Of a stretch of DNA of 64,000 nucleotides, positions 5,833 to 36,291 are shown in pieces. The notes under the pieces were generated by a model that searched no databases, was not told the DNA's origin, and was given only the letters and a program-made list of their open reading frames with translations. The stretch is from a virus. The position numbers were made by a program, and so were the translations under genes. Location of the stretch: positions 1-64,000 of IMG/VR virus record IMGVR_UViG_3300037470_001029; one strand, written 5' to 3'. The stretch's first letter is position 1. The number at the start of each line of letters is the position of its first letter.

Positions 5833-6755
5833 CACACGACCCCTCCCTTGACCTGCGACGCGTTGTTGCCGCCGAGCCAGGTGATGACGACGCCGTTGGT
5901 GCCGATCGCCAGACCTGTGGAACCGCCAGCGCCCGCATCGTATGTACCCGAGCCGCTCTGTCCGCTCTCCCCGCACATCCCGCCGTTGCCGGCGTTATGC
6001 CCACCGAAGCCGTAAAAAGTCTCGTCGCCAGAGGAACCTGTTTGATCGGGTTCGAGTGCATTAGACGGTGCCCCTCCCTGACCACCAACGAGTCCTTGCC
6101 CGCCACCGCCGCCGCCAATAGTGCGCTCCAAACCGGTTGTCCATCCACCTCCGCCGCCTCCGCCGCCTCCACCCCAGATGTAGCCGTTCGTATTGTCTAT
6201 GGAAAGACCTGACGGGCACGTGGTGAGGGCGATGGCCCGAACACCGAGCCCGGCGCCAGAAAACGCAGCTCCACCGCCGCCGCCCTGGCCCATGATGTTG
6301 CCGTTATTGATCAGCCTCAGGTCGCTGCCAACGGAGAACGTCGCCCAGACCATCGAGTAATCGGTCACGCCGGGAGAGGCTTCATTCCCGACGTATATGC
6401 CGGAGTTCACGGTGACCCAGATGCGGGCCGGCGTGCCCGACACCCACCCGGCGACCTGCGCGGCAGCATTCACGTCGTAGCGATAGGAGGTCGACGCGAT
6501 GGTGAGCAGGAAGGTAGGTAGCCCGCCGCCGCGCGCCATCTTCATCATGCCGAAGCCGACGAACATCCCGTGCTGGAAGATGACCGTGAACCGGTCGGCC
6601 TGCGCCCACCCGGCCTTCTCCCGGTACTCGGCGACCAGCCGCTGCTCCGGCGGCATGGCGGCATGCACCAGCGACGGCAGCAGCACCGGGACCGTGAGAA
6701 GCGCGGCGGCGATGCGCCTCGCGCAGCGCGCGCGGACCTTGTCGATGGTGCTCAT
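5832..6755 (-). CDS. glycine-rich receptor-recognition protein (T-even gp38-like polyglycine motifs)
   Basis: Start ATG 6755; INNGNIMGQGGGGG, IDNTNGYIWGGGGGGGGGG. Confidence 0.55.
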   Translation of the reverse strand: MSTIDKVRARCARRIAAALLTVPVLLPSLVHAAMPPEQRLVAEYREKAGWAQADRFTVIFQHGMFVGFGMMKMARGGGLPTFLLTIASTSYRYDVNAAAQVAGWVSGTPARIWVTVNSGIYVGNEASPGVTDYSMVWATFSVGSDLRLINNGNIMGQGGGGGAAFSGAGLGVRAIALTTCPSGLSIDNTNGYIWGGGGGGGGGGWTTGLERTIGGGGGGQGLVGGQGGAPSNALEPDQTGSSGDETFYGFGGHNAGNGGMCGESGQSGSGTYDAGAGGSTGLAIGTNGVVITWLGGNNASQVKGGVV

Positions 6756-7723
6756 CCGCGCTTGCCCATGTGCATGACGTCCCAGACGGTCCCGCCGTCG
6801 CGCGTCGTCGCCGAGAACAGGTTGCGGCCAGCGGCCTCGAGAGTCGTGTCGTTCGGTCGATTGGACGAGCCGCCCATCCACTTAAAGGACGCCGGCCAGG
6901 TGATGCGGCCGTCGATGTCGCGGTCGCCGTTGATGATCTCGAACATGATGGTCTGAGACTTTCCGGCCGCCGGCGGGTTGGAGACGGCGACCGTCATGGT
7001 GTGTGAGAGCGTCGCGCTCGGCGTCATCGCGAAGTGGCCGTACAGGGAGGCGTTCATCGTCGCTGTGGCGCCGTTGCCGATCGCTCCGAGGTCGACGAAG
7101 TTCTCACGGACCCGCGTGGCATCGACCGGCACGGCCGTGCTGTTTCCGACCCCGGTAGAGCCGTTGAAGCTCGACGTGCCGGCGATCGCCATCGCCGTCA
7201 GGCTCGCCGTCGATGCAGAGCCGAGCCCGTGCACCGAGGTTCCTGTGGCGGCGACGTGCGTCGCCAGGCCGGCTACGACGCGCAGGCACTTCGCCCAGAT
7301 CTCGAAGATCAGCGTGGTGATCCCGCCGCTGAAGGTCGTCACCGTGATGTTGTCGTTGGCGTCGAACGTGTTCGACTGCGTGGATCCCATCTGCGTCCAC
7401 ACCGCGGACTCCGGTGTCGCGTTCCAGTCGGCGCCGCTCGTCCAGAACCAGCCGACGGTCAGCGGCTGCACCGTGCCCGTGCCGCCCCAGGTCATCTGCA
7501 TCTTGAAGCCGATGGAGAGCGTGGCGTTCATCCAGTAGAGCCGCTGCGGACGGTCGACGCCGGGGCCGGTGCCCGTCACGCGCGACTGCACCCACCCCGG
7601 GATGCGCCCGGTGATCACGCCGTCGCGCAGGGCGCGCAGGTCGTTCAGCGCGCTGGTCGAGAACGGCGTCGGTGCTTGTGAGGCCTGCGGGTTTGCTGAG
7701 TCGAATTCGGTGTAGGCGGGCAT
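6752..7723 (-). CDS. minor tail/fibre-associated virion protein
   Basis: 323 aa, beta-rich, ITWPASFKW motif; follows tail-tip gene. Confidence 0.6.
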   Translation of the reverse strand: MPAYTEFDSANPQASQAPTPFSTSALNDLRALRDGVITGRIPGWVQSRVTGTGPGVDRPQRLYWMNATLSIGFKMQMTWGGTGTVQPLTVGWFWTSGADWNATPESAVWTQMGSTQSNTFDANDNITVTTFSGGITTLIFEIWAKCLRVVAGLATHVAATGTSVHGLGSASTASLTAMAIAGTSSFNGSTGVGNSTAVPVDATRVRENFVDLGAIGNGATATMNASLYGHFAMTPSATLSHTMTVAVSNPPAAGKSQTIMFEIINGDRDIDGRITWPASFKWMGGSSNRPNDTTLEAAGRNLFSATTRDGGTVWDVMHMGKRG

Positions 7724-21304: not shown

Positions 21305-21828
21305 GCGCGTGCCACCCGCATATTAAGGGCGCTGCCGGTCAGGTAAGGCGAGAGCATTGCATCGATCGCCCTAAAACGCGGATATTCGCTCGAAGCCGGG
21401 TCGTAGGTCACACTGATTTCTCCGACGCGCACAGAAGACTTCGAGCGCGTCAGATCTGGGGAAAGCTCACCGGCCGCGGCGCGCAGCGCCAGCTCGGCGC
21501 AGGCGTTCTTGACCTCGGCAGGCACGATGTTGTCGGCAACGAGGTAAGGTTGCTCGCCGACGCCGCCCTGGATGAACGGCTCTAAGTAGACGTAAGCCCT
21601 AGGCCAATCGAGGGCCTGCGTAGCATCCTTGCGGAACCCTTTCCAGCGACCGCGGAACATCTGCAACATGTAGTCAGTCGCGCGGCGCAGTGCTTGCTCC
21701 ATCTGCGCCTCGGTAAGCAGTGCCCACGTCGATGCGCCGCGCGCCGCGTGGTATGCGGAGACGTCGGCGACCGAGACGTAGCTCTCGGCGTTCGCCTTCG
21801 CGGTGCCGTCTTCGACTTCGAGGCTCAT
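21301..21828 (-). CDS. head-tail adaptor (DnaT-like annotated family)
   Basis: VEDGTAKANAESYVSVAD...QALDWPR...VKNACAELAL. Confidence 0.8.
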   Translation of the reverse strand: MSLEVEDGTAKANAESYVSVADVSAYHAARGASTWALLTEAQMEQALRRATDYMLQMFRGRWKGFRKDATQALDWPRAYVYLEPFIQGGVGEQPYLVADNIVPAEVKNACAELALRAAAGELSPDLTRSKSSVRVGEISVTYDPASSEYPRFRAIDAMLSPYLTGSALNMRVARA

Positions 21829-23579
21829 GGATAGTCTCTCTGAATCGCAGCAAGCGGATATTGCGCACTTGTTCCGGTGAGCGGGAATTTATCTGATGGC
21901 ACAACACCGATCAGTGGGTACCTATGGCTAGCAGGCACCAGAGCGATGCACTGATCAGTCGCATTGCACGCCTCGTCGACCGAGGCAGCAATGGTCCCTG
22001 GAGGCAGGTCGATCTCGCCGGACAACAGATCGAGCGCGGAGCCTGCCTCGACGGTGATCCCCAAGGTGAGTCGAGAACCACTTGGGGTGTCGATGCAGGT
22101 TGCCGGTTCGGTGACCGAAGCAAGAAGGGTCCCCGTGGCCGCAGGCGCATCCGTACCGCTAGCCGCTTCCGCAACCGCGGCGTCGGCGTCCCTGGAGGCG
22201 CTTGGCGACTCGGATGCGGACGACGCCTCCGCGGTGGCCACAAAATGGGCCTCGTTCAGCCACCCGGGCTCGTCCACGGCTGTCGCCGCTTCAAAGGCCC
22301 CGGAATTCAGGCTCGCTGCTGCGCCAGGAGCATCCGTGGCCGCCGCAGGCTCGTTCACCGCAGCTACGCCCGCCACAAACGACTGTGGGGAATCCATGGC
22401 CGCTGCGGGCTCGCCCACATCGGCTTGGAACGTGGCGATGGCAGACGGCGAATCGGTGGCGGCCGCAAGTTCGTCGCCGGCCGCGGTGATGCCACCCAAG
22501 ATAGCGCTCGGGTCGTCGGTCGCCGCGGCGCTCTCGGTCTGCTCGACCTGCCTCGAGGCAAAGGACTCCGGCGCATCGGTGACAGACGCGGACTCGGCCT
22601 GAGCAGCTTCCCGTAAGGCCTGACTTGTCGGATCGTCGGTCGCAACTGCCGATTCAGTCGTGTCCGCGACGGCGGAGGTCTGGGCGCTCGAGGAGTCAGC
22701 CGAAGCACCCGTCTCTCCCGTCGCCGCGGCATGCACGACCACCGCGCTGGGGGAATCTGCGGCAGACGAAGTCTCCGTTGTATCGCCTGCAACCGCGCCT
22801 CCTCCTGCCTCGATGGAAGCATCCAAGCTGTCAGCAGCAGAGGCCGACTCGTCTGCCGCCGAGTTCAGGGTAGACGCGCCGCTTGGGGAGTCAGTTGCGC
22901 TCGCCGCCTCGCTACTGTCGGCATCGATCGCCGGATCTGTCCAGGTAAGGACCACGATCCCGGCGGCGCCAGCGCCGCCGATCTTGTTCGCCGCCTGGTT
23001 TGTGTTCCCTCCTGAGCCTGCGCCGCCGTAGATGCTGCCAGCCGTGCCTACGACTCGGACCGCTACGCCTGCGCCAGAGGCCCCGCTGTAGCTGTTGCCG
23101 TCGAGGAAGGCGCTCGTCTCTGGCGTGCCTGCCGTGTCGGCCGAAGCCGCACCACCGACACCGCCAGGCCCTGCCGCGCCGCCGCCTGCCCCAGAGACGG
23201 TGTTCGTCCCGGTCGCGTTCCCGCCGTTCCCGCCCGCAAAGGTGACGTCACCGGTATTCGCCCCGACTAGGGCCGAGGCGCCAGTCGCGCTGTTCGCGGC
23301 AACTGTTGCACCGCCAGCGGCCGACAGGACGGTTGATGCGCCCTGCACTACCGTGGATGCTGCTGCCGCCCCGCCGACCGTGATGTCGAGAGTGCTCTCG
23401 CCGCCTTTGGTAATGGCGACCTTCGCGTAGCTGCCGCCCTTGCCGCCCCCGCAGTTCGCGGGGTTGTTCGTGGCATCTCCACCCGCACCGCCGCCCCCCA
23501 ACGCCTCGGCGGTGAGTTGTGTGACGCCGGCAGGCCACGCCCACGCGGCGTCAGATGCGGTGAGGACGGCAGAGCCCAA
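21825..23579 (-). CDS. virion-associated protein: Gly-rich N-domain plus acidic repeats
   Basis: WPAGVT...GGGGAGG domain, then about 16 ExAxAxD-S/A-P repeats of ~21-22 aa period. Confidence 0.65.
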   Translation of the reverse strand: MGSAVLTASDAAWAWPAGVTQLTAEALGGGGAGGDATNNPANCGGGKGGSYAKVAITKGGESTLDITVGGAAAASTVVQGASTVLSAAGGATVAANSATGASALVGANTGDVTFAGGNGGNATGTNTVSGAGGGAAGPGGVGGAASADTAGTPETSAFLDGNSYSGASGAGVAVRVVGTAGSIYGGAGSGGNTNQAANKIGGAGAAGIVVLTWTDPAIDADSSEAASATDSPSGASTLNSAADESASAADSLDASIEAGGGAVAGDTTETSSAADSPSAVVVHAAATGETGASADSSSAQTSAVADTTESAVATDDPTSQALREAAQAESASVTDAPESFASRQVEQTESAAATDDPSAILGGITAAGDELAAATDSPSAIATFQADVGEPAAAMDSPQSFVAGVAAVNEPAAATDAPGAAASLNSGAFEAATAVDEPGWLNEAHFVATAEASSASESPSASRDADAAVAEAASGTDAPAATGTLLASVTEPATCIDTPSGSRLTLGITVEAGSALDLLSGEIDLPPGTIAASVDEACNATDQCIALVPASHRYPLIGVVPSDKFPLTGTSAQYPLAAIQRDYP

Positions 23580-24570: not shown

Positions 24571-25254
24571 CTAGCCTTTCTTGTCCGCCTTCTTCAGCTT
24601 TTTGATCAGCTCATCCTTGTTCTCGCCCTGCGTGTAATCCACGCCGGCGGCGTCAAGGCGCTCCTGCAGCTCGGACTTGGTCAGGGTCTCGAGGTCCTCG
24701 TCGGCGGGAGGAGCCGCGGTGCCCTTGCCGGCGCCCTTGCCCGACGCAGCCTTGGCTTCCTTCTCCTGGCGGGCCTTGAGTGCCTCGTTGGCGGCCGCGG
24801 CGTCCTTCTCGGCCTTGTCGGCATCGGCCTCGGCCTTCTCCGCGGCCTTTTCTTTCGCCGCGGCGTCGGCCTTCAGCTTCGCCAGGCTCGCGGGCGTCGC
24901 GGTAACGTTGACGCCGGGGTTGCCGCCGTTGGCGGCGAGCGCGGCGGCGCTGTCGGCGGCGGTGCGCGCAGCGACGGCGGCGGCGCGGGCCTTCATCGCC
25001 GGGTTCGTCTCGGCCATCTTCCGGTGGTCCTGGACTTCGGTCGAGGCGGCGTGCTGCTCGTACTGCGAGCGCATGTTCTCCTTGCGCCGCTCCTCTTCGG
25101 AGGCGCGGAGCACCTCGCCGGCGGTCTTGGCGGGCGGGTCGCCCTTGGCAGCGTTCGGGTCGTCGAACGTGTACTCGCCGGTCTCGACCATCTCTTTCGC
25201 GTCGACGGCTTCGTGGTGGGAGACGGCGCCGGTTTCCTTGTGGAAGACTTTCAT
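24571..25254 (-). CDS. Ala/Lys-rich protein with C-terminal HeH/LEM (Rho-N-like) domain
   Basis: DLETLTKSELQERLDAAGVDY...NKDELIKKL. Confidence 0.65.
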   Translation of the reverse strand: MKVFHKETGAVSHHEAVDAKEMVETGEYTFDDPNAAKGDPPAKTAGEVLRASEEERRKENMRSQYEQHAASTEVQDHRKMAETNPAMKARAAAVAARTAADSAAALAANGGNPGVNVTATPASLAKLKADAAAKEKAAEKAEADADKAEKDAAAANEALKARQEKEAKAASGKGAGKGTAAPPADEDLETLTKSELQERLDAAGVDYTQGENKDELIKKLKKADKKG

Positions 25255-25337
25255 GTTCTCTTACTCCTTCGGGTGTTCTCTTACGTTGGGAGGCCCCGCC
25301 GCCGGGCTTGGAAAGCCGAGCGGCGGGGAGGGCGGGA

Positions 25338-25841
25338 CTAGCGCTTCGCCAGGAAGGCGAGGTAGGTGATGCTGTTCGCCACGGCGCCGACGTTCACCGT
25401 GCGGATGCGCAGGTAGCGGAAGGTCGTGCCGCCCTTCTCGTTGCGCACCGGCATGATGTAGCGGCCGACGACGTCGTCGTAACCCTGGCCGTCCGCGACG
25501 TGGCGCGCCGACAGCGCCGCGCCGAGCGTGATGCTGCCCAGCGAGGCAATGTTGGCGGCCGTGCCGAAGGTGGCATCCGGAGAACCCTGGACGATGATCT
25601 CGTAGCTCTCGTCGGTCGTCACCACGTCGATCGCGGAGACGTCGACGACGAGGTCCATCGCGGCCAGCCCGTTGCCGATGTCGACGATCAGCGTGCCGTC
25701 CGCGGAGGCGGTGACCGCGGCCGACGCCTTGAGCAGCAGCGCGTTGTCGTAGGTCTTGCTGGAGTAGAGAGCGGAGAGCACCGTTCCCGTCCACGCCATG
25801 TAGGCGGCGATGCCCGCCAGGAAGTGCTTGATGCTTTTCAT
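25338..25841 (-). CDS. capsid cement/decoration protein (with N-terminal leader)
   Basis: Start ATG 25841 (GAAAGGA RBS); jelly-roll-like YDNALLLK...YEIIVQGS...RYLRI; directly after MCP. Confidence 0.7.
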   Translation of the reverse strand: MKSIKHFLAGIAAYMAWTGTVLSALYSSKTYDNALLLKASAAVTASADGTLIVDIGNGLAAMDLVVDVSAIDVVTTDESYEIIVQGSPDATFGTAANIASLGSITLGAALSARHVADGQGYDDVVGRYIMPVRNEKGGTTFRYLRIRTVNVGAVANSITYLAFLAKR

Positions 25842-25869
25842 GAGCTTTGTCCTTTCGGTGGGTGGCAGG

Positions 25870-26895
25870 TTACGCGACGACGGCGAGGTTGCCGATGTGG
25901 CGCAGGCGGGTGAGGGAGCGGCCGTTGTAGACGGCGAACCCGTTGTACCACTCGACGCGGGTCCGATACATCGGAGAAGCCTCCAGCTCGCCCAGGTCGC
26001 GCACGTCGACGCCGCCATTCTGGATGCCCTGGATCGCGCCATCGCCCATGCTCAGCACGTAGATCGACGTCGCCGTCGCGGTGCCGGAGGCCGCGGCCTC
26101 GTTGAAGCCGAGGATCGCCGCCTGCGTGTTGTCCAGGTCCACCGTCAGGATCGGCAGGTCGTTGTAGATGGTGATGCGCTTGCCGAAGGAGTCCTTGTCG
26201 TAGGTGATGAAGCCGCCGACGGTGTAGTTGCGCGCGGCCGCGGTGATGAGCCGGCGCATCGCCTTGCTCATCAGCAGGTGGGTCGGGTTCAGCGTCTGGT
26301 CGATCGCCTCATCGAGCTTGCCGAGCGAGAGCGCGGCGCCGTTGGCCGTCGAGCCTGCGCTGATCACCTGCGCTCCGGTGGCTCGCGTCTGCAGCCCGTC
26401 GAACTCGCGCGGATCGGTGGCGGTGTCGCCCTTGATGAACTTCTTCGTCCACGCCAGCGCCAGGGCGCGGACCTTCATGGCCTCGTGGGTGGAGCGCTGG
26501 GCCATGCCCATCGTGTCGACGATGAACTTGTCGACGTCGAGGTCGCCGCCGGCGATCACCAGCGACTCGGTGAGGGGATTCAGCACGCCGGTCGAGGGCG
26601 TGTAGGCCTCGTTCACCCCGCGGAAGCCGACGCCGGGCAGCGACTCTTCCCGGTTGTACTTCATCGCGTTGCCGGGGATCGTGTCGAAGGGCAGATTGGC
26701 GAGGATGTCGCTGGAGCCCGCGTAGAGCTCGATGATGGCCTGGCGGATCACGTCGCCGGTCTCGAGCTTCGCAGCCTCGACGAGAGTCAGGCCGCCGAGC
26801 ACGACGCCCTGGCGGTACATCAGGTTGTTGAGGAACGCGGAGAGCGCTGCGATGACCAGCATGACCGCGAGATGGAGTTTCTTGAGGGCAGCCAT
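25870..26895 (-). CDS. major capsid protein (with N-terminal leader)
   Basis: Start ATG 26895 (AAAGGAG RBS); LTLVEAAK...LPGVGFRGVNE...GGDLDVDKFI...EFDGL. Confidence 0.88.
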   Translation of the reverse strand: MAALKKLHLAVMLVIAALSAFLNNLMYRQGVVLGGLTLVEAAKLETGDVIRQAIIELYAGSSDILANLPFDTIPGNAMKYNREESLPGVGFRGVNEAYTPSTGVLNPLTESLVIAGGDLDVDKFIVDTMGMAQRSTHEAMKVRALALAWTKKFIKGDTATDPREFDGLQTRATGAQVISAGSTANGAALSLGKLDEAIDQTLNPTHLLMSKAMRRLITAAARNYTVGGFITYDKDSFGKRITIYNDLPILTVDLDNTQAAILGFNEAAASGTATATSIYVLSMGDGAIQGIQNGGVDVRDLGELEASPMYRTRVEWYNGFAVYNGRSLTRLRHIGNLAVVA

Positions 26896-27138
26896 GGAGG
26901 CTCCTTTCGAATCGGTTGAATGGGAAAATCGTTTGCCGCTCGCCCATCCCGGACGATTCGCCGAAGTCCCCGCATCCCGCGGATCTCCAAGCAACTTCTT
27001 TTCTGGGTTCGCAGGCCAAAGCACCTGTCCCAGATGCTTTGGCCTTGACCCCAGTGCGTCGGGAACTCCTAGGCTCTCCCGACCAAGCCTGAGCCGGCAG
27101 CATATACCTGCCGGAGCGGCGCTGTAACCCAGTGCCTT

Positions 27139-28185
27139 TTAGCGCTTGGCCCCTGCCTGCAATTCGCGCGCTTTCGTCAGCCGATCGGTCGGAGACAATC
27201 CCGAGAAATCGGGCGCGCCGCGCACGGTGCGCTTGTCGCCCTTGGCGTCGCCGCCGCTCCCGCCTGCCGGGAACCAGTGTGGGCAGTCCGCGCGGCGCTC
27301 CTCGATCCAGTCCTCGACCGAGAAGGGCGCCTTGCCCTCCTTGTTGAGCACGACCGTCTCGCCGTCCTCCTCGAACTGGACAGCCTTGAGCTCGTCGTTC
27401 AGCGAGAAGATCTGCCTGGCGCGCAGCAGCGCATCCTCGATCGCGCCCGGGAACATCCCCGCGTTGGTCGCCGCGGCGCGCACCTTGTTGTCGATCGCGT
27501 GCTCCATCAGCGTCGAGGCCACCTCCAGCGCGCCGTCGCGCTCCTCGCCCGCGGTCTGCGCCTGGCTCATCAGCTCCTCGCGCATCTTCTGGGTGCGGGC
27601 CTCCATCACCTTGTCGATGTGGCCGGCCTGGATCATCTTGCGCTCTTCCTCGCTGGCGAACTGCGACAGGAGCTCGCGGGTCTTGACCGGGTCGATGCCG
27701 TCGAACTGCTTGAGCTGCGTCTCGTACTCCTCCCTAACCTTCTTGATCTTGTCTTCCGAGTTACGGCGCTCGTTCTCCGCGACCTTCTTGAGCCCGGTGA
27801 CATCTTCGACGTCGACCTTGGAGTGGTCCAGCTTGAACTTCTTCGTCGCCGGGTCCTCGGCGTACCAGGCGCGCATGAACTCCGGCACCGCCTCGAGCTT
27901 GTCGACCTCGGGGGCGATGGCGCCGAGAGACAGCCCGCAGCGCTCGATCCATGACGGCTCGAACGGGTCCGCCGCCATCAGCTTCAGCGGCTGGAGGGGA
28001 CGCCCGAACGTCAGGACGCTGAGCCACAAGCGGCCGGTGAACAGGAGGTAGATCCGCTCGCGGAGCGTCAAGCCCCAGCACGAGATGGCCTGCCCGTTGT
28101 CGCCGACGTGCGCCGGCAACGGGATGTACGGCTTCTGGTCCTTCGCGATCACGATGTTCTGCTGCTTGAATTCGACCGGCTTCAT
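27139..28185 (-). CDS. capsid scaffolding protein with extra N-terminal domain
   Basis: VDKLEAVPE...EDVTGLKK...coiled coil...PHWFPA-GGSGG; position upstream of MCP. Confidence 0.8.
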   Translation of the reverse strand: MKPVEFKQQNIVIAKDQKPYIPLPAHVGDNGQAISCWGLTLRERIYLLFTGRLWLSVLTFGRPLQPLKLMAADPFEPSWIERCGLSLGAIAPEVDKLEAVPEFMRAWYAEDPATKKFKLDHSKVDVEDVTGLKKVAENERRNSEDKIKKVREEYETQLKQFDGIDPVKTRELLSQFASEEERKMIQAGHIDKVMEARTQKMREELMSQAQTAGEERDGALEVASTLMEHAIDNKVRAAATNAGMFPGAIEDALLRARQIFSLNDELKAVQFEEDGETVVLNKEGKAPFSVEDWIEERRADCPHWFPAGGSGGDAKGDKRTVRGAPDFSGLSPTDRLTKARELQAGAKR

Positions 28186-28252
28186 GCTCTTCTCCTTTGA
28201 TGGAGTTGCCCGCGCATCCCGCGCGGTAAGGTTTGCCCGAATCCCTCGAGCC

Positions 28253-28372
28253 CTACTTGCTTTTTTTCTTGCCCTTCTGGAACGGCGGCAGCTTGCCCTT
28301 GCCCTTCGGAGCTTCGGACTTGCCTCTGCTGCCCTTCTGGTAGTTCTTCAGCCCTTCAGGTACCTTTCCCAT
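28253..28372 (-). CDS. 39-aa Lys/Gly-rich peptide
   Basis: Not in ORF track; AGGAGG RBS; MGKVPEGLKNYQKGSRGKSEAPKGKGKLPPFQKGKKKSK*. Confidence 0.6.
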   Translation of the reverse strand: MGKVPEGLKNYQKGSRGKSEAPKGKGKLPPFQKGKKKSK

Positions 28373-28829
28373 GATCGCCTCCTAAGTTTTGCTCGCGCGA
28401 TCCCTGCGCGTAGGGTTCACTTCTGAGAGTATATCCTGGCTTGTTCTCCAGCCGACGCGCCCGCACGTTGTCGGTCGCGTCGAAGCCCAGCTTGCGCAGC
28501 GCGCTGGCCAGCGCCATCGGATCTCCGTGGCTCGCCGCGTAATCGTCTGCCTCGAGTTCTTGCCTGTAGCGGCGCGACGGCGACGCGCGCATGAAGAAGC
28601 AGACCAGCAGGAGATTCTTCCAGATGTGGCGGTGGTGGCGGTGCCCCTCCTCGTGCAGACGCACGGCGTGCCACTCGTCCGGCGTGAGGCGGTCTACGTA
28701 ATCGTCTGGGATGATGATGCGGAAGCCGTTGAAGGATGCGCCCTGCGGATTGGCGTAATACATGCCGACTAGATGCAGCGCGATCCACAAGACCCAGATG
28801 ACGGCGAAGACTGTTCCGGCAATGACCAT
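28356..28829 (-). CDS. M48/M56-like zinc metallopeptidase with N-terminal TM
   Basis: LTPDEWHAVRLHEEGH...RQELEADDYA...LASALRKL. Confidence 0.75.
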   Translation of the reverse strand: MVIAGTVFAVIWVLWIALHLVGMYYANPQGASFNGFRIIIPDDYVDRLTPDEWHAVRLHEEGHRHHRHIWKNLLLVCFFMRASPSRRYRQELEADDYAASHGDPMALASALRKLGFDATDNVRARRLENKPGYTLRSEPYAQGSREQNLGGDHGKGT

Positions 28830-29902
28830 CAGGCGTATCTCGCGCGCAGTTGTCCGACGGTCATTATGCGCGTCCCGTCGAGCGACAGCAACTGCTCCAG
28901 TGTCAGCTTATTGTCGCGCCAAAGGTCTGCGCGCCCGGGTCCGAGCGCCTCGTCCTGCCATGCCTTGCCCTTGCGGCGCAGGAAGGCCTCGAAGTCCATG
29001 CCAGCCGACACGGGACCGTCGCTCGATGCGCGGCGGCCGGGCTTGGCCTCCTCGGCGTCGATCCCTAGCTCCTTGTAGGTCTTCGTCACCGCGACCGCCA
29101 CGCACCGGCAGCCCCAGTGGATGACGCCCGGCCCGCCCTCCCACGCGAGGGAGTGGCCCTGCGGTTTCGGCGGGTCGTCGAGCAGAGTGTACCGCTTGCG
29201 ATCGCGCGGCCCGCAGATCGGGCATGTGTGGACATCGAGCGTCGCGAGCCAGCGGATTCCCGAGAGCGCGTCTGCATTCCTGCGGAATGTCTCCATGCGC
29301 GCCTCATTGGCGGCCGCCTGGATGCTTGTGTGCACGAGCGAGCGGGCATTGCTGCGCGCCACATCCATAACTCCTGGAATGCCGAGCCGCGGCGACCCGA
29401 CAACGCGGCGAACAATTTGTTCGTTGGCCTCGCCTGCGGCGATCCCCTGGCGGACGGCGGTGGAGAACCGCCAGGCGGTGTCCTGCGACTGCCGCAGCCA
29501 CCAGTCGGCCGACGACGAACCCAGCAGCAGAGCGTTGGACGCCACGCGGGCGAGGAACGTCTCCGTAGGCAGGCCGACCGCCAGCACGATGCGGAGCGCA
29601 GGCCCGAGCGCCTGCGCGGTGGTCTCCGCCGTGGCTCGCGCCGCGCCGGCCATCGACGTGCTGAGGACGGCCTGCCCGGTCGCGTAGTAGCGGTCGATCA
29701 CGGCCGTGGCCTGGCGCAGCATCTGTTGCGTGCGCGCCTTGGTGAACTCGGTCAGGTCTCCGCCCGCAAGCGTCTGCGCCAGCTCGGCCTGCAGCCGGTT
29801 GAGTACGGCGAGCACGCGGGCGCGCACGCCGGCCTCGAACCTGAGCAGGTCGATCTGGTGCTCGAGGATGAGGTCGATCAGCGCCTGGTCTATGGTTCCC
29901 AC
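28829..29902 (-). CDS. MuF / SPP1 gp7-like minor head protein
   Basis: ARSLVHT, WLATLDVHTCPIC, IHWGCRC. Confidence 0.85.
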   Translation of the reverse strand: MGTIDQALIDLILEHQIDLLRFEAGVRARVLAVLNRLQAELAQTLAGGDLTEFTKARTQQMLRQATAVIDRYYATGQAVLSTSMAGAARATAETTAQALGPALRIVLAVGLPTETFLARVASNALLLGSSSADWWLRQSQDTAWRFSTAVRQGIAAGEANEQIVRRVVGSPRLGIPGVMDVARSNARSLVHTSIQAAANEARMETFRRNADALSGIRWLATLDVHTCPICGPRDRKRYTLLDDPPKPQGHSLAWEGGPGVIHWGCRCVAVAVTKTYKELGIDAEEAKPGRRASSDGPVSAGMDFEAFLRRKGKAWQDEALGPGRADLWRDNKLTLEQLLSLDGTRIMTVGQLRARYA

Positions 29903-30090
29903 TAGCAAGAGCTCCGCGGTTTAGGCGCAATGATAATGCGGCGATCAGTGACCTGCGTACGCAACCTGAGGCTGTTGTCGCGCCAACCACACTTTGAGGC
30001 TTCGAGAGCATCAAACCTCTCATCGATGTCCTTCATCATGCTCACGGCAAGATTTCTAGCCAACTGCTGAAGTAGCTCTTTGAGCATCAA
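29902..30090 (-). CDS. hypothetical protein
   Basis: 62 aa filling the gap with overlapping start/stop codons. Confidence 0.45.
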   Translation of the reverse strand: MMLKELLQQLARNLAVSMMKDIDERFDALEASKCGWRDNSLRLRTQVTDRRIIIAPKPRSSC

Positions 30091-30557
30091 AACCTCCTCT
30101 GCCGCTGCATAGGGTCGGGCTTGACGCGCGTCGTCTCGATGCCGCGGGCACTCATGCTCTTGAACACAGGGTCAGCCGACGGCGCAGCCTGGTTCGGCAG
30201 GTACGCCGGGTCCGAGAAATTCTTCGCCAGCAGCACCGGCTCCGGGAACCAGCCGTTGCACATGGTCGTCAGCTCGCGCAGCACCTTCTGCGGCAGCTTG
30301 CTCGGCGTGACCGTCGTGATGATCCGGCACTTCGACAGGTGCCGGTACAGGCACACGCGCGGCAGCGTAGCGTCGCTCTTGCATTCATTGTCGAGGTACG
30401 CGATGTCCTCTATCACAGACCACTGGTGCTTCTCCATCGGCTCGGTGACCTTGACCCACTTGATCGGCGGCCCTCCCTCGACCGGCGGGACCTGCGCGAA
30501 CGAAACCGCGATCACGAAGTAGGGAAGCGACAGCATCGTCAAAATGATGGCTCTCAT
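30087..30557 (-). CDS. putative secreted Cys-containing protein
   Basis: Start ATG 30557; signal-like MRAIILTMLSLPYFVIAVSFA; 4 Cys. Confidence 0.55.
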   Translation of the reverse strand: MRAIILTMLSLPYFVIAVSFAQVPPVEGGPPIKWVKVTEPMEKHQWSVIEDIAYLDNECKSDATLPRVCLYRHLSKCRIITTVTPSKLPQKVLRELTTMCNGWFPEPVLLAKNFSDPAYLPNQAAPSADPVFKSMSARGIETTRVKPDPMQRQRRF

Positions 30558-30805
30558 CGTTGGCCCTCCGCGGCGCGCTGCCGCGCTTCGTAGGCGTCGC
30601 CCAATTGCTTCGCCAGCGGGTGCTTGACCCACGCCAGCACCATCCGGTTCAGCTCTATATCGCACTCCACGCACAGCGGGCGGTGGAGGTTGCCGTCCGA
30701 GCAGATCTGCCAGGTGGCGTGCGCCCTGCGCGGGCAGCGCACGCACTTGAGACGGCGGACGCCCGCGTCGGTGTACGGCCGGCGCCGACCGATCAGTCCC
30801 ACCAT
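30554..30805 (-). CDS. small Zn-finger-like protein
   Basis: CVRC...C...CVEC. Confidence 0.55.
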   Translation of the reverse strand: MVGLIGRRRPYTDAGVRRLKCVRCPRRAHATWQICSDGNLHRPLCVECDIELNRMVLAWVKHPLAKQLGDAYEARQRAAEGQR

Positions 30806-31236
30806 TCCGCCTTCTTCATTCTGTTGGTCATGCCCTCTTGCAGCATCAGGCAGGAGCCGTAGTCGTGGCAGACGAGCCTGCCCTTGAGCATTCCATAGTT
30901 GTACCGCTTGAAGTCGGTCAGGTAAGCGGGCATTCTCTCGGGGAACTTCGTTGCCATCGTCGTGCGGCGCTGCATCAAGATCCCGCCGCTCTGCGAGATC
31001 CAGACACACGGGGCGAACCACCTGGCATGGGGAGTTCCCTTGACCATATCCCACACCTGCCACTCGAAGATATTCTGGAAACGGTCCTTGTTCTGGTCTT
31101 CGATCTTAATAACGATGCCATCGTCGATCGCAGACTCGTACACGTGCCGCGTCAGCCCGGTGCCGATCAGGGCGCCCGTTACGCTGACTGCCAGCTCGTG
31201 CTGAAGCGACGGGTTGTACAGGTGCGTATTGCTCAC
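30793..31236 (-). CDS. minimal protein-kinase-like fold protein
   Basis: GTG start coupled to portal stop; IGTGLTRHVY, VIK, QNIFE, DFKRYNYG, HDYG. Confidence 0.7.
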   Translation of the reverse strand: MSNTHLYNPSLQHELAVSVTGALIGTGLTRHVYESAIDDGIVIKIEDQNKDRFQNIFEWQVWDMVKGTPHARWFAPCVWISQSGGILMQRRTTMATKFPERMPAYLTDFKRYNYGMLKGRLVCHDYGSCLMLQEGMTNRMKKAEWWD

Positions 31237-32795
31237 GCGATCGCCTTGCCAGGCTGGCCGCCGCCGGCCCCCGATTCGCCGAAAATCTCCTGCTGCAGGG
31301 CAAGCGCCGCGGCGTTCTGCTCCTGGATCTGCTGCTGGCGCTCGGCGATGCGCGCCTGCTCCTCTTCGAGGGTGACCTCCTCGGCCACGATCTCGCCGGC
31401 CTTCAGCAGGTTGAACAGCCCCTGGTCGGAGAGGCCCGGCGCGCCCTGCTGCCAGCCGCCCAGCAGCGCGGAGAGCATGGCGGGATCCATCGGGGCCGGG
31501 TAGAAGTCGCGGTTGAGCTCGACGAGAACCTTCGACGGGTCGGCCTCCGCCCACTCGGTGAACCACTTGAGCGCCTGCGTCATGCCGAGCGAGATGGCCT
31601 GCGCCATGCTCGACAGCGTCGACTCCTCGCCCTTGCGGTGGATGCTCGACGACTCGGCTGTCTCCACCGCCTTCTTCTGCGGCTCCAGCATGCGGGCGCC
31701 GAGGATGGCCATCTGCTGCTCCTCGCGGTTGAGCTTGTTCTCGAGGGTGCTCAGGCCCGCCCCGCTGAACTCGACGAAGGACGCCTGCGCCTTCTCGTTG
31801 GCAGAGACGATCGCCGTCTCGCTGCCGATGTAGACGTCCTTGGGGTTCCCCGCGGCGTCGAGCTCACGCTTGAACCCGGCGAGGAACAGGGTGGGCAGCG
31901 CCGTGAAGTGGCAGCCGTGCGCGTAGTCGGCGCTCGTGCGGTAGTGCGCGAGGTTCAGGTCGACCAGATCGATCAGCGGCGGCTCGTCGACGTCGGGCCC
32001 GACCTCGTCGGTGCCCATGATCACGAGCGGGATGAAGCCGAGCTTCATACTGCGCATTTCCGGGTAGATCGGCGGGCCGGGAACGTAGGCCGTCGCATTG
32101 CCCTTCATCCCGGTAGTCGACTTGGTTAGCTGCGGCTTGAACACGCGCTGCCGGTAGACCGGCGACGCGGGGGTGTTGTCGCCGGGGCTCGCCGGCAACT
32201 GCTCCAGGTCGAGCACGCGATACGTGTCCTGCTCCTTGGACTCGAACTCGTCCTTCGGATTGTCGACGCTCTCGGGCTCCTTCAGCACGACCTGCGTCAG
32301 CACCGTCTGGTTGTTGACCCGCCCGGTGCGCCAGTTGATGACCGACTCCGCGCGGTAGAGCAGCATCGTCGGGCGAAGGTTCATCCGCCTGGCGTCGGCC
32401 TGCGTCAGTCCCTTAGGGGCGGTCGGGTAGTCGACCAGCACGGCGATGCGCCCGACCGTCAGCGCGTTCTCGCTCACGTCCTGGAGGAGGAGCTGGAACG
32501 GCTGGCCCGCGGCGTCCACGTCCTTGAGCAGCTCCTCTACCGCGGCAGGGACCTCCACCTTTGGGGGCTTGCGGAACATCATCCCGAGCAGACCGGAGAT
32601 AGTACGCCACGTGGCGTTGTAAAACGTGGAGCGCAGCACCATCGCCTTGTAATCATTGGAGGTCTGCGCCTTTAGCTTCGGCAGGTACTTCTCGCCGGCC
32701 TGGTGCACGGCGTCCTGGCCTGCGGCCACGTCGCGGCAGCGCTCCCACTTCTTGGAAAACTCCTGATACTGCCTGTGCTGAGTATTGACGGGCAT
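31233..32795 (-). CDS. portal protein (DUF4055 family)
   Basis: KYLPK...FYNAT...LNLAHYRTSADY...LGARML; between terL and MuF. Confidence 0.9.
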   Translation of the reverse strand: MPVNTQHRQYQEFSKKWERCRDVAAGQDAVHQAGEKYLPKLKAQTSNDYKAMVLRSTFYNATWRTISGLLGMMFRKPPKVEVPAAVEELLKDVDAAGQPFQLLLQDVSENALTVGRIAVLVDYPTAPKGLTQADARRMNLRPTMLLYRAESVINWRTGRVNNQTVLTQVVLKEPESVDNPKDEFESKEQDTYRVLDLEQLPASPGDNTPASPVYRQRVFKPQLTKSTTGMKGNATAYVPGPPIYPEMRSMKLGFIPLVIMGTDEVGPDVDEPPLIDLVDLNLAHYRTSADYAHGCHFTALPTLFLAGFKRELDAAGNPKDVYIGSETAIVSANEKAQASFVEFSGAGLSTLENKLNREEQQMAILGARMLEPQKKAVETAESSSIHRKGEESTLSSMAQAISLGMTQALKWFTEWAEADPSKVLVELNRDFYPAPMDPAMLSALLGGWQQGAPGLSDQGLFNLLKAGEIVAEEVTLEEEQARIAERQQQIQEQNAAALALQQEIFGESGAGGGQPGKAIA

Positions 32796-33305: not shown

Positions 33306-33661
33306 GGCTGCTGCACCTTGACGCGCAGCTCGCGGTTGACATCGTCCAGCTCAGCCTTGTAGCGGAAGAACTGCTTCAGCTCCCACTGGTTGATCATGCG
33401 CGCGTCGCGCTTTGCCTCCAGCTCGAACACCTTGTCCTCGAGCGAGTTCTTGCGCTGGCGCAGGAACCCCGCGTCGGTGTACGCGCGCTGGGCGGCCAGC
33501 TCTTTTTTGAGCTCCTTCTTCGCCGCGGCGACGGCCTCCTCGGCCCTCTTGACGTCGGCGGCCTTTGCGTAGCGCGCGTCGATCGCCAGGGTGGCAATCA
33601 CGATCGCGGCGACCAAGCTGGCGAGCCACCAGATAGTCTTCTTCACTGCGGGATCGATCAT
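33302..33661 (-). CDS. single-TM coiled-coil protein
   Basis: N-terminal TM followed by charged coiled coil. Confidence 0.6.
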   Translation of the reverse strand: MIDPAVKKTIWWLASLVAAIVIATLAIDARYAKAADVKRAEEAVAAAKKELKKELAAQRAYTDAGFLRQRKNSLEDKVFELEAKRDARMINQWELKQFFRYKAELDDVNRELRVKVQQP

Positions 33662-34371
33662 TGTGGCCTCGCAGTCATCTTTTGCTCGACTGCCGCGCAG
33701 GCCTCACCCTCCTCGTGGATCAGGCGCTCCAGGTCGGCGAGCGGCATGTAGAAGGCGCCGGCCTTGCCCCAGTTGTCGCCCCACGAATTCTCGAGGGTGG
33801 CGAGCGAGCGCGTGGCGTTGATCCCCCGGAGCAGGTAGGCGTGGCCGCCGAGGACCGCGGCGCCCGGCTCGATCTTAACGATCCCCTCGGGATCCGGGTG
33901 CTCGAACGAGCTGTACCAGTTGGTGCCGACGACGCACGGACCGTTGGTCAGCACCCACTCGACCACGGTGGACAGGTCGAACGCCCAGAGGTAGCTCTTG
34001 AGGTGCCCGAGGTCGGTCAGCACTTTGGCGCCGGCGCGCACGCTCGTGCCCCCATCCATGGAAGGGTCCCAGTCGCCCATCGCGGCCTCGGCATCGTTGT
34101 CCGCCCACGGATCGATCGCGACCGCCCTGCGGTAGATGTCGAACGGCGACGGCCCGCTCTTCTCGGTCTGCATCGGCGCGCAGCGCAGGAAGTTCTTCCA
34201 CGCGTGGCCGACGCAGGTGCTGGTCAGGCCCTGGTCGAGCGAGCGCCCGTTGACCCGCCACGTCTTCGCGCTCGGAAGCAGCACCTTGTCCGCGGTGGCG
34301 AGCTTGCGGCGCATCAGGTACTCGCGGTCGCGCGGGTCGACGGCGATCCGGCGGCCCAGTCCCTTGTTCAT
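33658..34371 (-). CDS. papain-family (C1) cysteine peptidase
   Basis: DQGLTSTCVG, GGHAY, ENSWGDNWG. Confidence 0.85.
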   Translation of the reverse strand: MNKGLGRRIAVDPRDREYLMRRKLATADKVLLPSAKTWRVNGRSLDQGLTSTCVGHAWKNFLRCAPMQTEKSGPSPFDIYRRAVAIDPWADNDAEAAMGDWDPSMDGGTSVRAGAKVLTDLGHLKSYLWAFDLSTVVEWVLTNGPCVVGTNWYSSFEHPDPEGIVKIEPGAAVLGGHAYLLRGINATRSLATLENSWGDNWGKAGAFYMPLADLERLIHEEGEACAAVEQKMTARPQ

Positions 34372-35007: not shown

Positions 35008-36291
35008 TCAGACTCCTCTTATGACGACGCGCTCGATGCGGTCGTGGACGATCGGGTGCTCGTAGGCTATCGGGTAGGTCGAGGCGTCGTTCTGATGGTC
35101 GTGCCCGCTCTTCTTGTCGGGCTCGCCGTTCTCGTCGTAGGCCTGGCTCTCGAAGCAGCGCGCCACGGTCGGGCACTCGCGATCGTTGACCCAGAGCCTG
35201 GCGATCTCGAACTGCTTGTTGGTGGCGTTGACGCGGTCCTTCACGGCTGGGTTGGCGTTATCGGCGCGCACCTCGAACCCTGCCTGGTCGAGCAGCGCCA
35301 GGTCGGACTTGCTGGCGTCGACCGTCTCGCGGTTCTTGCCGCTCGGGTCCGGGTAGACGATGATGCGGTGCCCCTCGTCCTTCCAGCGCTCCGTGATGAT
35401 GCGGATCATGTCGGGCGTGTCGAGCACGTCCTTCAGCTCGGCGACCGCGTGCCACCCGTTCGCCCGCGGCACGTAGACCGTCGCGGCCATCTTCGTGACG
35501 TTGAAGTCCATGCCGATCAGCAGCGCCTCGGCGTCCGCGCCATTCTTGCGCGCGCGGATGGTCTCCCTCGACCTGCACCGGACTCGGTCGTAGTTCCTGT
35601 AGACGGTGCCCGCGGTGAGGTTGACGAACTTGCCGTCCAGGTACGCCTGCCGCAGCTCCTCGGTGTAGGCCTCGTAGAGAGACTGGATGTAGTCGTCCGG
35701 CAGGTTCTCCTCGTTGTCGTAGGTCGACGCCTGGACCAAGCCGTAGTTCTCCTTGAGCGCGGGCCGCTCCTCCGGGTCGGAGACGAAGAGCTTGTGCGTC
35801 GCGCGGAAGCCCTCCGGCGTCGTCGTGACGTCGATGCCGTTGCGCAGCCCGGGCCGCTTGATCCGCATGCGCGCCAGGATCTTGCGCCACGCAAGACGGG
35901 CCTTGTTCATCGGCAGCGTGTCGAGTTCGTCGACCAGGGCGTGGCCCACGTTGAAGCCGATGATGGTCTCCGGCTTCTCCATGGAGCGGCAGATCGTCGT
36001 GCCGCGGTAGCGGGCGCCGCTGTAGAAGTGGACCTCCTTGTTGCCCTCCATGGCCTTCGTACGCAGGCCGAACTCGAAAGCGACCTCGTCGATCGTCGGG
36101 TAGAAGATGTCGCGGATAAGCGAGTAGGTCGGCGCGAAGTACCCAGAGTTCACGCGCGGCCACTCGAGGTGGTGGGTGCAGGTCGCCATGCTGCCCGCCC
36201 AGGTCTTGCCCGAGCCGAAGCCCCCGACGTAGGCGCGGTTCTTGGTTTCGAGCGCCAGGAACTCGCACTGCGGGAGGTTTGCGTGGGGCAT
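35008..36291 (-). CDS. terL: terminase large subunit
   Basis: GGFGSGKT Walker A, LVDELD Walker B, TTTPEG, IGMDFN, DHQNDA. Confidence 0.95.
   Translation of the reverse strand: MPHANLPQCEFLALETKNRAYVGGFGSGKTWAGSMATCTHHLEWPRVNSGYFAPTYSLIRDIFYPTIDEVAFEFGLRTKAMEGNKEVHFYSGARYRGTTICRSMEKPETIIGFNVGHALVDELDTLPMNKARLAWRKILARMRIKRPGLRNGIDVTTTPEGFRATHKLFVSDPEERPALKENYGLVQASTYDNEENLPDDYIQSLYEAYTEELRQAYLDGKFVNLTAGTVYRNYDRVRCRSRETIRARKNGADAEALLIGMDFNVTKMAATVYVPRANGWHAVAELKDVLDTPDMIRIITERWKDEGHRIIVYPDPSGKNRETVDASKSDLALLDQAGFEVRADNANPAVKDRVNATNKQFEIARLWVNDRECPTVARCFESQAYDENGEPDKKSGHDHQNDASTYPIAYEHPIVHDRIERVVIRGV

Follow-up and report, generated by a model that had tools for sequence, protein, structure and literature searches.

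A mini M48-like zinc metallopeptidase encoded among phage head genes, a candidate leader peptidase for precursor head proteins

Canonical maturation proteases of tailed phages are encoded between the portal and the scaffold or coat genes and remove N-terminal parts of coat and scaffold proteins. To our knowledge, all established enzymes of this kind in tailed phages and herpesviruses are serine proteases, with one exception, a host cysteine protease borrowed by staphylococcal phages; that enzyme, Prp, is shared with ribosomal protein L27. In phage 80alpha, this non-canonical host protease trims the N-termini of the capsid and scaffold proteins, and the cleavage is reported to be non-essential and an uncleavable capsid protein viable (PMC5744158). 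Here we describe a gene on the minus strand of a 64-kb window (the whole stretch of DNA analysed, positions 1 to 64,000 of virus record IMGVR_UViG_3300037470_001029, which has 72,037 bases and a CheckV completeness of 100%). Its product, a mini M48-like zinc metallopeptidase that we call P0001, lies among the head genes, and we favour, with some reserve, its being a phage-encoded leader peptidase for head proteins. In contrast to 80alpha, the candidate is a zinc enzyme encoded by the phage rather than a protease of the host, and the coat leaders are long and hydrophobic.

The closest described enzymes resemble P0001 in their catalytic core and differ from it in architecture, setting, or substrate. 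ZMPSTE24, a protein of ~475 amino acids (aa), encloses a membrane chamber of seven helices and cleaves prenylated CAAX proteins, and the glutamate of its E-F-Q-A-D segment binds zinc. Like ZMPSTE24 and Ste24p (M48A), P0001 has an HExxH motif and a downstream glutamate in an E-x-x-A-D helix, but it lacks the chamber, has just one helix, and is presumed to act on capsid-protein leaders. HtpX (M48B) is anchored in the membrane, has its active site in the cytoplasm, and cleaves membrane proteins; HtpX and BepA share the M48 family with P0001, but these bacterial enzymes serve host quality control, are larger, with additional transmembrane (TM) segments or TPR domains, and have their genes outside phage head operons. 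BlaR1 and MecR1 (M56) share with P0001 a TM helix followed by a gluzincin domain, but P0001 leaves no room for a sensor domain. Minigluzincins (proabylysin, 4jiu; selecase/projannalysin, 4qhf) are archaeal, soluble domains of ~100-110 aa with a minimal M48/M56 core comparable in size to that of P0001, and we know of no link between them and viruses. The prohead proteases HK97 gp4 (S78), T4 gp21 (S77), the ClpP-like enzymes (S14), and lambda C (S49) are serine proteases that act inside the prohead, whereas P0001 is a predicted membrane-anchored zinc protease found in P22-type head modules, which are classically protease-free. The gene and its main parts are as follows.

28356..28829, minus strand: open reading frame (ORF) of the mini M48-like zinc metallopeptidase P0001, 157 aa, ATG start
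28755..28826, minus strand: predicted membrane anchor, residues 2-25, a hydrophobic helix
28641..28655, minus strand: HEEGH, residues 59-63, predicted zinc-binding and catalytic motif
28542..28562, minus strand: QELEADD, residues 90-96, the glutamate helix

P0001 consists of an N-terminal anchor helix, a minimal gluzincin catalytic core, and a low-confidence tail of ~30 aa. A preliminary description of the window had proposed an N-terminal TM helix together with HEEGH and ELEAD motifs, and both proposals held. The Kyte-Doolittle maximum over 17 residues was 2.54 for residues 2-25, which form a single helix in the AlphaFold2 model (predicted local distance difference test, pLDDT, 92; predicted template modelling score, pTM, 0.80). 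Both motifs are read directly from the sequence, and H59, E60, H63, E91, A94, D95, and R123 were invariant in all 80 aligned family members, so HEEGH and QELEADD are not chance motifs. W12 and W15 in the anchor were almost invariant in the same alignment, and E91 is presumed to be the third zinc ligand.

Pfam Peptidase_M48 (PF01435) matched P0001 with 22.3 bits (cut-off 20.3; E 1.3e-4) and matched 11 of 11 close homologues, with a best E of 4.8e-10. A profile search of the PDB gave ZMPSTE24 as the best hit (E 4.6e-9), with HEEGH aligned to HELGH and E-x-x-A-D to E-F-Q-A-D, and also matched an HtpX fragment (3cqb) at E 0.0023. In the VIA fold comparison, ZMPSTE24 (6bh8) was again best (Z 9.2, root-mean-square deviation 2.9 over 119 residues, the preceding TM helix included), followed by BlaR1 (8exp, Z 6.9), Ste24p (4il3, 6.4), BepA (6sar, 6.3), and 3c37 (6.3). 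These top five matches are all M48/M56 enzymes, and the sixth row had a Z of 5.0. In this comparison, the anchor helix of the predicted model superposes on the TM helix found ahead of the catalytic domain in both ZMPSTE24 and BlaR1. Foldseek found no match in the PDB at E <= 0.001; its best E was 0.12, though the top rows were nonetheless ZMPSTE24. Typical M48 enzymes have a multi-pass chamber or extra domains and more than 250 aa, and P0001 has 157 aa and one hydrophobic helix. Judged from sequence and predicted model together, P0001 is a minimal single-anchor offshoot of M48, not a typical member. The match to M56 (PF05569) reached 15.7 bits against a 31-bit cut-off, and P0001 ends ~60 residues past the glutamate helix. 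Comparison with the minigluzincins was weak (profile E 0.31 to MJ1213; VIA Z 4.2 for 4jiu and 3.8 for 4qhf).

The presumed substrates are three head proteins encoded downstream of the protease gene, each with an N-terminal extension:

27139..28185, minus strand: scaffolding protein precursor, 348 aa (phrog_206, E 2.7e-31 over residues 93-345)
27922..28185, minus strand: scaffold pro-region, residues 1-88, ending G-L-S-L-G
25870..26895, minus strand: major capsid (coat) protein precursor, 341 aa (phrog_212, E 1.6e-82; Pfam GP7)
26794..26895, minus strand: coat leader, residues 1-34, with K-K, a 16-residue hydrophobic stretch, a short linker, and G-V-V-L-G
25338..25841, minus strand: phrog_427 protein just after the coat gene (phrog_427, E 3.3e-8)
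25773-25841, minus strand: leader of the phrog_427 protein, residues 1-23, ending G-T-V-L-S

The coat starts at M44 of the longest ORF, with AAAGGAG 6 nt before that ATG, and an AAAGGAG-type ribosome-binding site also stands ahead of the scaffold ATG. The coat leader is hydrophobic (17-residue Kyte-Doolittle maximum 2.14), and about 68 of the 80 closest coat relatives on viral contigs (68-80% identical) begin M-A-L-T-L-V-E exactly at the leader junction; the coats of phiCbK and Mesorhizobium phage Cp1R7A-A1 likewise start there. Among nine leader-bearing coats whose mature part is 72-79% identical to that of the window, the leader is invariant only at G30, the first glycine of the motif. Leaderless scaffold homologues (for example in locus L085; L numbers denote loci) begin where residue 89 aligns, and leaderless homologues of the phrog_427 protein start M-A-N-L-Y-S at the junction. 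Shorter scaffold leaders with the same kind of end motif were found in L095, L068, L233, L235, L030, and L004. The G-x-x-L-(G/S) leaders named in the preliminary description are thus present on three head proteins, and the motif is, by these alignments, a genuine junction common to the coat, the scaffold, and the phrog_427 protein. As with the substrates of known maturation proteases, these N-terminal segments share a junction motif, and their removal is predicted. We considered and dropped a prepilin-peptidase-like site (the glycine before L-T-L-V-E), as L-T-L-V-E is the mature start in leaderless coats too and the scaffold junctions differ. Residues 1-70 of the scaffold (27976-28185, minus strand) form a conserved N-domain of ~70 aa that also occurs in L065 and L067, both protease-bearing, and has no Pfam or PHROG match; other leader-bearing scaffolds have a leader of just ~34 aa.

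The preliminary description had called for checking whether the gene and leader-bearing coats occur together across related phages, and we found that the gene never occurs without the leader, though the leader often occurs without the gene. In a protease-first set, 12 loci had the coat start on the fragment (L001, L003, L004, L005, L006, L008, L010, L030, L032, L033, L233, and L235, some of them near-duplicates), and eight others were uninformative owing to a contig end or the lack of a recognisable coat. All 12 coats open with a hydrophobic leader ending G-[LFVM]-x-x-G. The leader was also present in seven of seven M48-bearing loci found coat-first, giving 19 of 19 loci in which the gene is accompanied by a leader. 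Among 80 loci with phrog_212-type coats, 55 with at least 3 kb upstream were kept (25 dropped), and among 80 with phrog_283-type coats, 62 with at least 2.2 kb were kept (18 dropped). The gene was found in 3 of 9 leader-bearing versus 0 of 46 leaderless phrog_212-type loci (Fisher p 0.003) and in 4 of 4 phrog_283-type loci with a G-L-V-L-G leader versus 0 of 58 others (Fisher p 1.8e-6); the counts include near-duplicate contigs and the rows are not independent, so these p values ignore kinship. Together, none of 104 leaderless loci carried the gene.

This pairing extends across head-gene families and beyond the head slot. It was seen with phrog_212 coats, with phrog_283 (P22-type) coats accompanied by phrog_784 or phrog_206 scaffolds, and in P22-like modules (phrog_156 portal, phrog_648 scaffold) in which the gene lies upstream of the terminase genes. 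In L008, the protease gene lies upstream of the large terminase gene (TerL), yet the coat 6 kb downstream has a leader ending G-L-V-L-G. In a coat tree, made by a quick maximum-likelihood method with two partial coats left out, leader-bearing rows fell at several places among near-identical leaderless ones, and M48-bearing rows at a minimum of three places (>= 3). The residue before the junction was glycine in nearly all M48-bearing coats and H, G, T, C, or F where the gene is lacking. The restriction of the gene to leader-bearing coats, across coat families and outside the head slot, suggests a functional link between the enzyme and the leaders and argues against an unrelated passenger gene.

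The genomic setting also resembles that of known maturation proteases. The genes on which this comparison rests, with one small ORF and a second peptidase, are:

35008-36291, minus strand: TerL
33658-34371, minus strand: papain-like peptidase (phrog_16701 'peptidase', E 1.8e-47; weak Pfam Peptidase_C1)
31233-32795, minus strand: portal
28829..29908, minus strand: MuF-like head morphogenesis protein (Pfam Phage_Mu_F, E 1.8e-11; phrog_241, E 2.4e-91)
28253..28372, minus strand: 39-aa lysine-rich ORF with a GGAGG ribosome-binding site, unannotated

All head and tail genes are on the minus strand, and the head genes run in the order small terminase, TerL, papain-like peptidase, portal, MuF, M48-like gene, scaffold, coat, and phrog_427 protein, beyond which lie connector and tail genes including the tape measure. 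The phrog_427 protein occupies the same position as the phiCbK 'minor capsid protein' gp069, an equivalence that is positional only. The phrog_241 and phrog_206 matches confirmed the placement of the protease gene between MuF and scaffold that had been noted from the sequence. MuF and the protease gene share one base at their TGATG junction, where the A that ends the MuF stop also opens the protease ATG. No promoter-like sites were found in 25000-31500, and the same scan found no terminator-like sites on the strand of the protease gene and a single one on the opposite strand. The absence of an HK97- or ClpP-type prohead protease, first reported for the window, extends to the complete record: Pfam S78, ClpP (S14), and S49 each had 0 matches in all 72,037 bases, and controls for these searches matched in 4, 13, and 14 of 14 genomes, respectively. 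Apart from P0001 and the papain-like peptidase, no protease emerged when 44 ORFs of the window were scanned against PHROG and Pfam. The 39-aa ORF overlaps the 3' end of the protease gene by 17 nt, occupies most of the 170-nt gap to the scaffold gene, and had zero PHROG matches.

Homologues of the protease are rare. A search of 5.8 billion sequences returned 11 clusters, and an exhaustive search gave 125 representative homologues at E <= 1e-3, mostly of 130-160 aa. We examined 13 close loci from viral and genome collections, those from the genome collections being prophages in Duganella, Janthinobacterium, and one betaproteobacterial metagenome-assembled genome. Duganella phyllosphaerae T54 (L031) and Janthinobacterium sp. 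SUN073 (L032) are strains whose prophages have this protease gene paired with a leader-bearing coat. In 10 of the 13, the immediate neighbours of the protease gene are MuF or portal on one side and the scaffold gene on the other, the head-operon position of maturation proteases, though the families of the surrounding genes vary (portal phrog_145 or phrog_156; scaffold phrog_206, phrog_784, or phrog_648; coat phrog_212 or phrog_283). The gene is separated from the one upstream by 3-16 nt in L003, L007, L032, and L033.

We suggest that the coat, the scaffold, and the small post-coat protein would be made as precursors whose leaders end in glycine, three hydrophobic residues, and glycine or serine. 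The anchor helix would hold the mini-M48 enzyme at the inner membrane with its active site in the cytoplasm, by analogy with BlaR1 and ZMPSTE24, and translational coupling to MuF may keep the amount of protease low. The coat leader is hydrophobic enough that it could sit in or on the membrane and so bring the substrate to the membrane-bound enzyme. Cutting after the fifth residue of the motif would yield N-termini equal to those of leaderless relatives, and the released proteins would then enter P22-style scaffold-dependent assembly. Leaders of this kind may serve to delay, localise, or target assembly. A complex prediction with the protease, coat residues 1-70, and zinc scored 0.00, with controls not run, and so weighs neither way.

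Several observations weigh against this proposal, as do the kinship among the rows counted above and the quickness of the coat tree. The preliminary description had named routine absence of the gene from leader-bearing relatives as a finding that would speak against the enzyme, and this was found in part. The gene is missing from six of the nine leader-bearing phrog_212-type loci (L066, L068, L069, L071, L072, and L100), and a whole-record search found no M48-like sequence in five of five records of these loci, two of them rated 100% complete; the positive control recovered the gene in five of five. One of these complete records had no Pfam peptidase family among 66 ORFs, a scan from which ORFs with GC content at third codon positions (GC3) < 0.7 had been filtered out beforehand and three duplicate ORFs from overlapping stretches omitted. 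Leaders are alike in L235, where the order is portal, protease, scaffold, coat, and in L068, which has portal, scaffold, and coat and lacks the gene. The leaders of phrog_283-type coats, annotated as 'P22 coat protein', resemble Sec signal peptides (MKK, a hydrophobic core, A-x-A), and by the positive-inside rule the mature protein would then end up on the wrong face of the membrane, which makes host signal peptidase or another route possible. The GC3 of the protease gene is 0.77, versus 0.93-0.95 for scaffold, coat, portal, and TerL, which fits later acquisition. In three of the 13 close loci (L002, L008, and L009), the gene is found away from the head module, with terminase or ParB-like genes nearby. 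Finally, a tblastn search of 50,697 cultured-phage records found zero homologues of the anchored protease, so there is no annotated or studied homologue as a guide.

The leader-bearing relatives without the gene mean that the enzyme cannot be the sole or obligatory route for the leaders. The proposal that it removes leaders is partly supported, by the confinement of a predicted zinc peptidase to leader-bearing modules, and the part that would make it an obligatory maturation protease is not. Cleavage is probably dispensable or can also be carried out by a host enzyme, as in 80alpha. Among all ORFs of at least 60 aa in the two complete leader-bearing phages that lack an M48-like gene, we also sought another small HExxH protein; four and three ORFs, respectively, had HExxH, one of them in a phrog_513 transposase, but none combined an anchor with a gluzincin core, and such a substitute was rejected. 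One complete leader-bearing phage without the protease, L227 (G002), carries two anti-defence genes:

L227 (G002), 2057-2911: Acb3 (E 9.9e-67)
L227 (G002), 6665-7219: Tad3 (E 5.4e-36)

A second mini-M48 family bears on how general the pairing may be. Its members lack the TM helix, are 108-113 aa long, within the minigluzincin size class, and are 41-47% identical to the anchored family over the catalytic core. In L011-L027 and L029, their gene directly follows a portal-like gene of ~725 aa, and a 168-aa protein, an acidic scaffold-like protein of ~240 aa, and a 473-aa coat (phrog_1357) share a leader of ~18 residues that ends L-F-P-(G/A). A distant leaderless coat starts where this leader ends. 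The leaders of this sister system have Kyte-Doolittle values of 0.7-1.2, too low for a membrane, versus 1.4-2.7 for the coats paired with the anchored enzyme. The tblastn search of the 50,697 cultured-phage records found zero homologues of the sister family as well. One locus serves as an example:

L019, 7959-8288: TM-less mini-M48 protease
L019, 10115-10621, 10631-11365, and 11381-12802: the three leader-bearing head proteins

We tentatively advance, as a possibility rather less probable than leader cleavage itself, that the coat, and partly the scaffold and minor capsid protein, may be parked at the inner membrane by the leader and freed by the mini-M48 enzyme, which would amount to a membrane-gated checkpoint of assembly; the enzyme and its soluble sister would then form the first class of capsid maturation proteases in tailed phages to depend on a metal, each family with a leader 'address' of its own. 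Separately, P22-type coats and scaffolds of L196, L202/L203, L216, and L220 carry a third class of leader, a short and partly hydrophobic segment whose last residues, A-A-Y or similar, directly precede the conserved start of the mature protein. The genes between TerL, portal, scaffold, and coat include none that resembles a protease in these loci.

The strongest alternative, which we judge rather unlikely though deserving serious weight, is that the leaders are taken off by a host enzyme, for instance signal peptidase I, HtpX, or a different membrane protease, or that they stay, with the mini-M48 enzyme in an accessory role: clearing cut leaders or stalled membrane-inserted precursors, or acting as a host-independent back-up. 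The leader-bearing phages without any M48-like gene, two of them complete and one without a recognisable peptidase, speak for this explanation, and the signal-peptide features of phrog_283-type leaders, A-x-A included, point the same way. So do the A-A-Y leaders, which occur without a protease gene in the head module, and the variable pre-junction residue in M48-lacking loci, set against the near-constant glycine of M48-bearing coats. There is a precedent in 80alpha, which uses a host protease and is reported to tolerate uncleaved capsid protein (PMC5744158). However, the confinement of the gene to G-x-x-x-G leaders across head-gene families is easier to account for if the enzyme acts on the leader junction, and a purely membrane-clearing role does not generalise to the TM-less sister, whose leaders are not hydrophobic.

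That the gene is an unrelated moron, as the preliminary description had allowed, appears unlikely. Such a gene could encode a membrane metalloprotease for superinfection exclusion or abortive infection (Lit-like), lysis timing, or remodelling of host membrane proteins, and would simply occupy a permissive place in the head operon. Its low GC3, its patchy presence among close relatives, and the terminase or replication genes close to it in L002, L008, and L009 would fit. The homologue P0004 also bears a precomputed Pfam label, PF10463, which we take to be Peptidase_U49/Lit, and PADLOC gave weak capP matches in three of 11 members (E 0.006). PADLOC found nothing for P0001 itself, though, and Lit/Peptidase_U49 was absent from the Pfam matches of P0001 (E <= 0.01) and of the 11 members (E <= 0.1). 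The gene has no promoter or terminator of its own and its start overlaps the MuF stop. It is also absent from all 104 leaderless modules, and leaders are always present with it, even where it lies away from the head slot.

The papain-like peptidase at 33658-34371 could in principle cut the leaders in the double-glycine style of C39 enzymes, given its phrog_16701 match and the G-G at some junctions, but tblastn found no homologue of it in 62 M48-related loci, 160 coat-related loci (222 in all), or two complete leader-bearing records, so it does not track the leaders, and we rejected it as a very improbable candidate that is probably a moron or lysis-related.

Processing of capsid proteins by a dedicated protease is already known, and what is probably new here is the enzyme class and the type of leader. 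A search of full-text literature, with subscription journals outside its coverage, returned no paper that assigns capsid maturation to an M48 or other metallopeptidase and none that describes signal-peptide-like leaders on tailed-phage coat proteins. If correct, a phage zinc protease for the leaders of coat, scaffold, and minor capsid proteins would introduce an enzyme class not previously seen in virus assembly, and the combination of hydrophobic coat leaders with an anchored enzyme raises the question of whether capsid assembly begins at the membrane. For annotation, a mini-M48 gene together with shared N-terminal leaders may mark precursor head proteins whose mature start follows the motif.

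Three further ORFs of the window drew our attention:

21825-23579, minus strand: 584-aa Gly/Ala/Ser-rich ORF with many short A-x-D-x-P-S-like repeats and no PHROG family
24571-25254, minus strand: 227-aa Ala/Lys/Glu-rich protein among the head genes
30793-31566, minus strand: phrog_4301-matching ORF

The 584-aa ORF is flanked by the head-tail adaptor gene and the head genes and is possibly a head fibre or decoration protein. The C-terminal ~40 residues of the 227-aa protein weakly match SAP/Ish1-like and 'Arc-like repressor' PHROG profiles. The phrog_4301 ORF has a GC3 of 0.66, versus ~0.93 in its neighbours, and overlaps the 3' end of the portal gene as called; translation probably begins further downstream, and the ORF may have been inserted recently.

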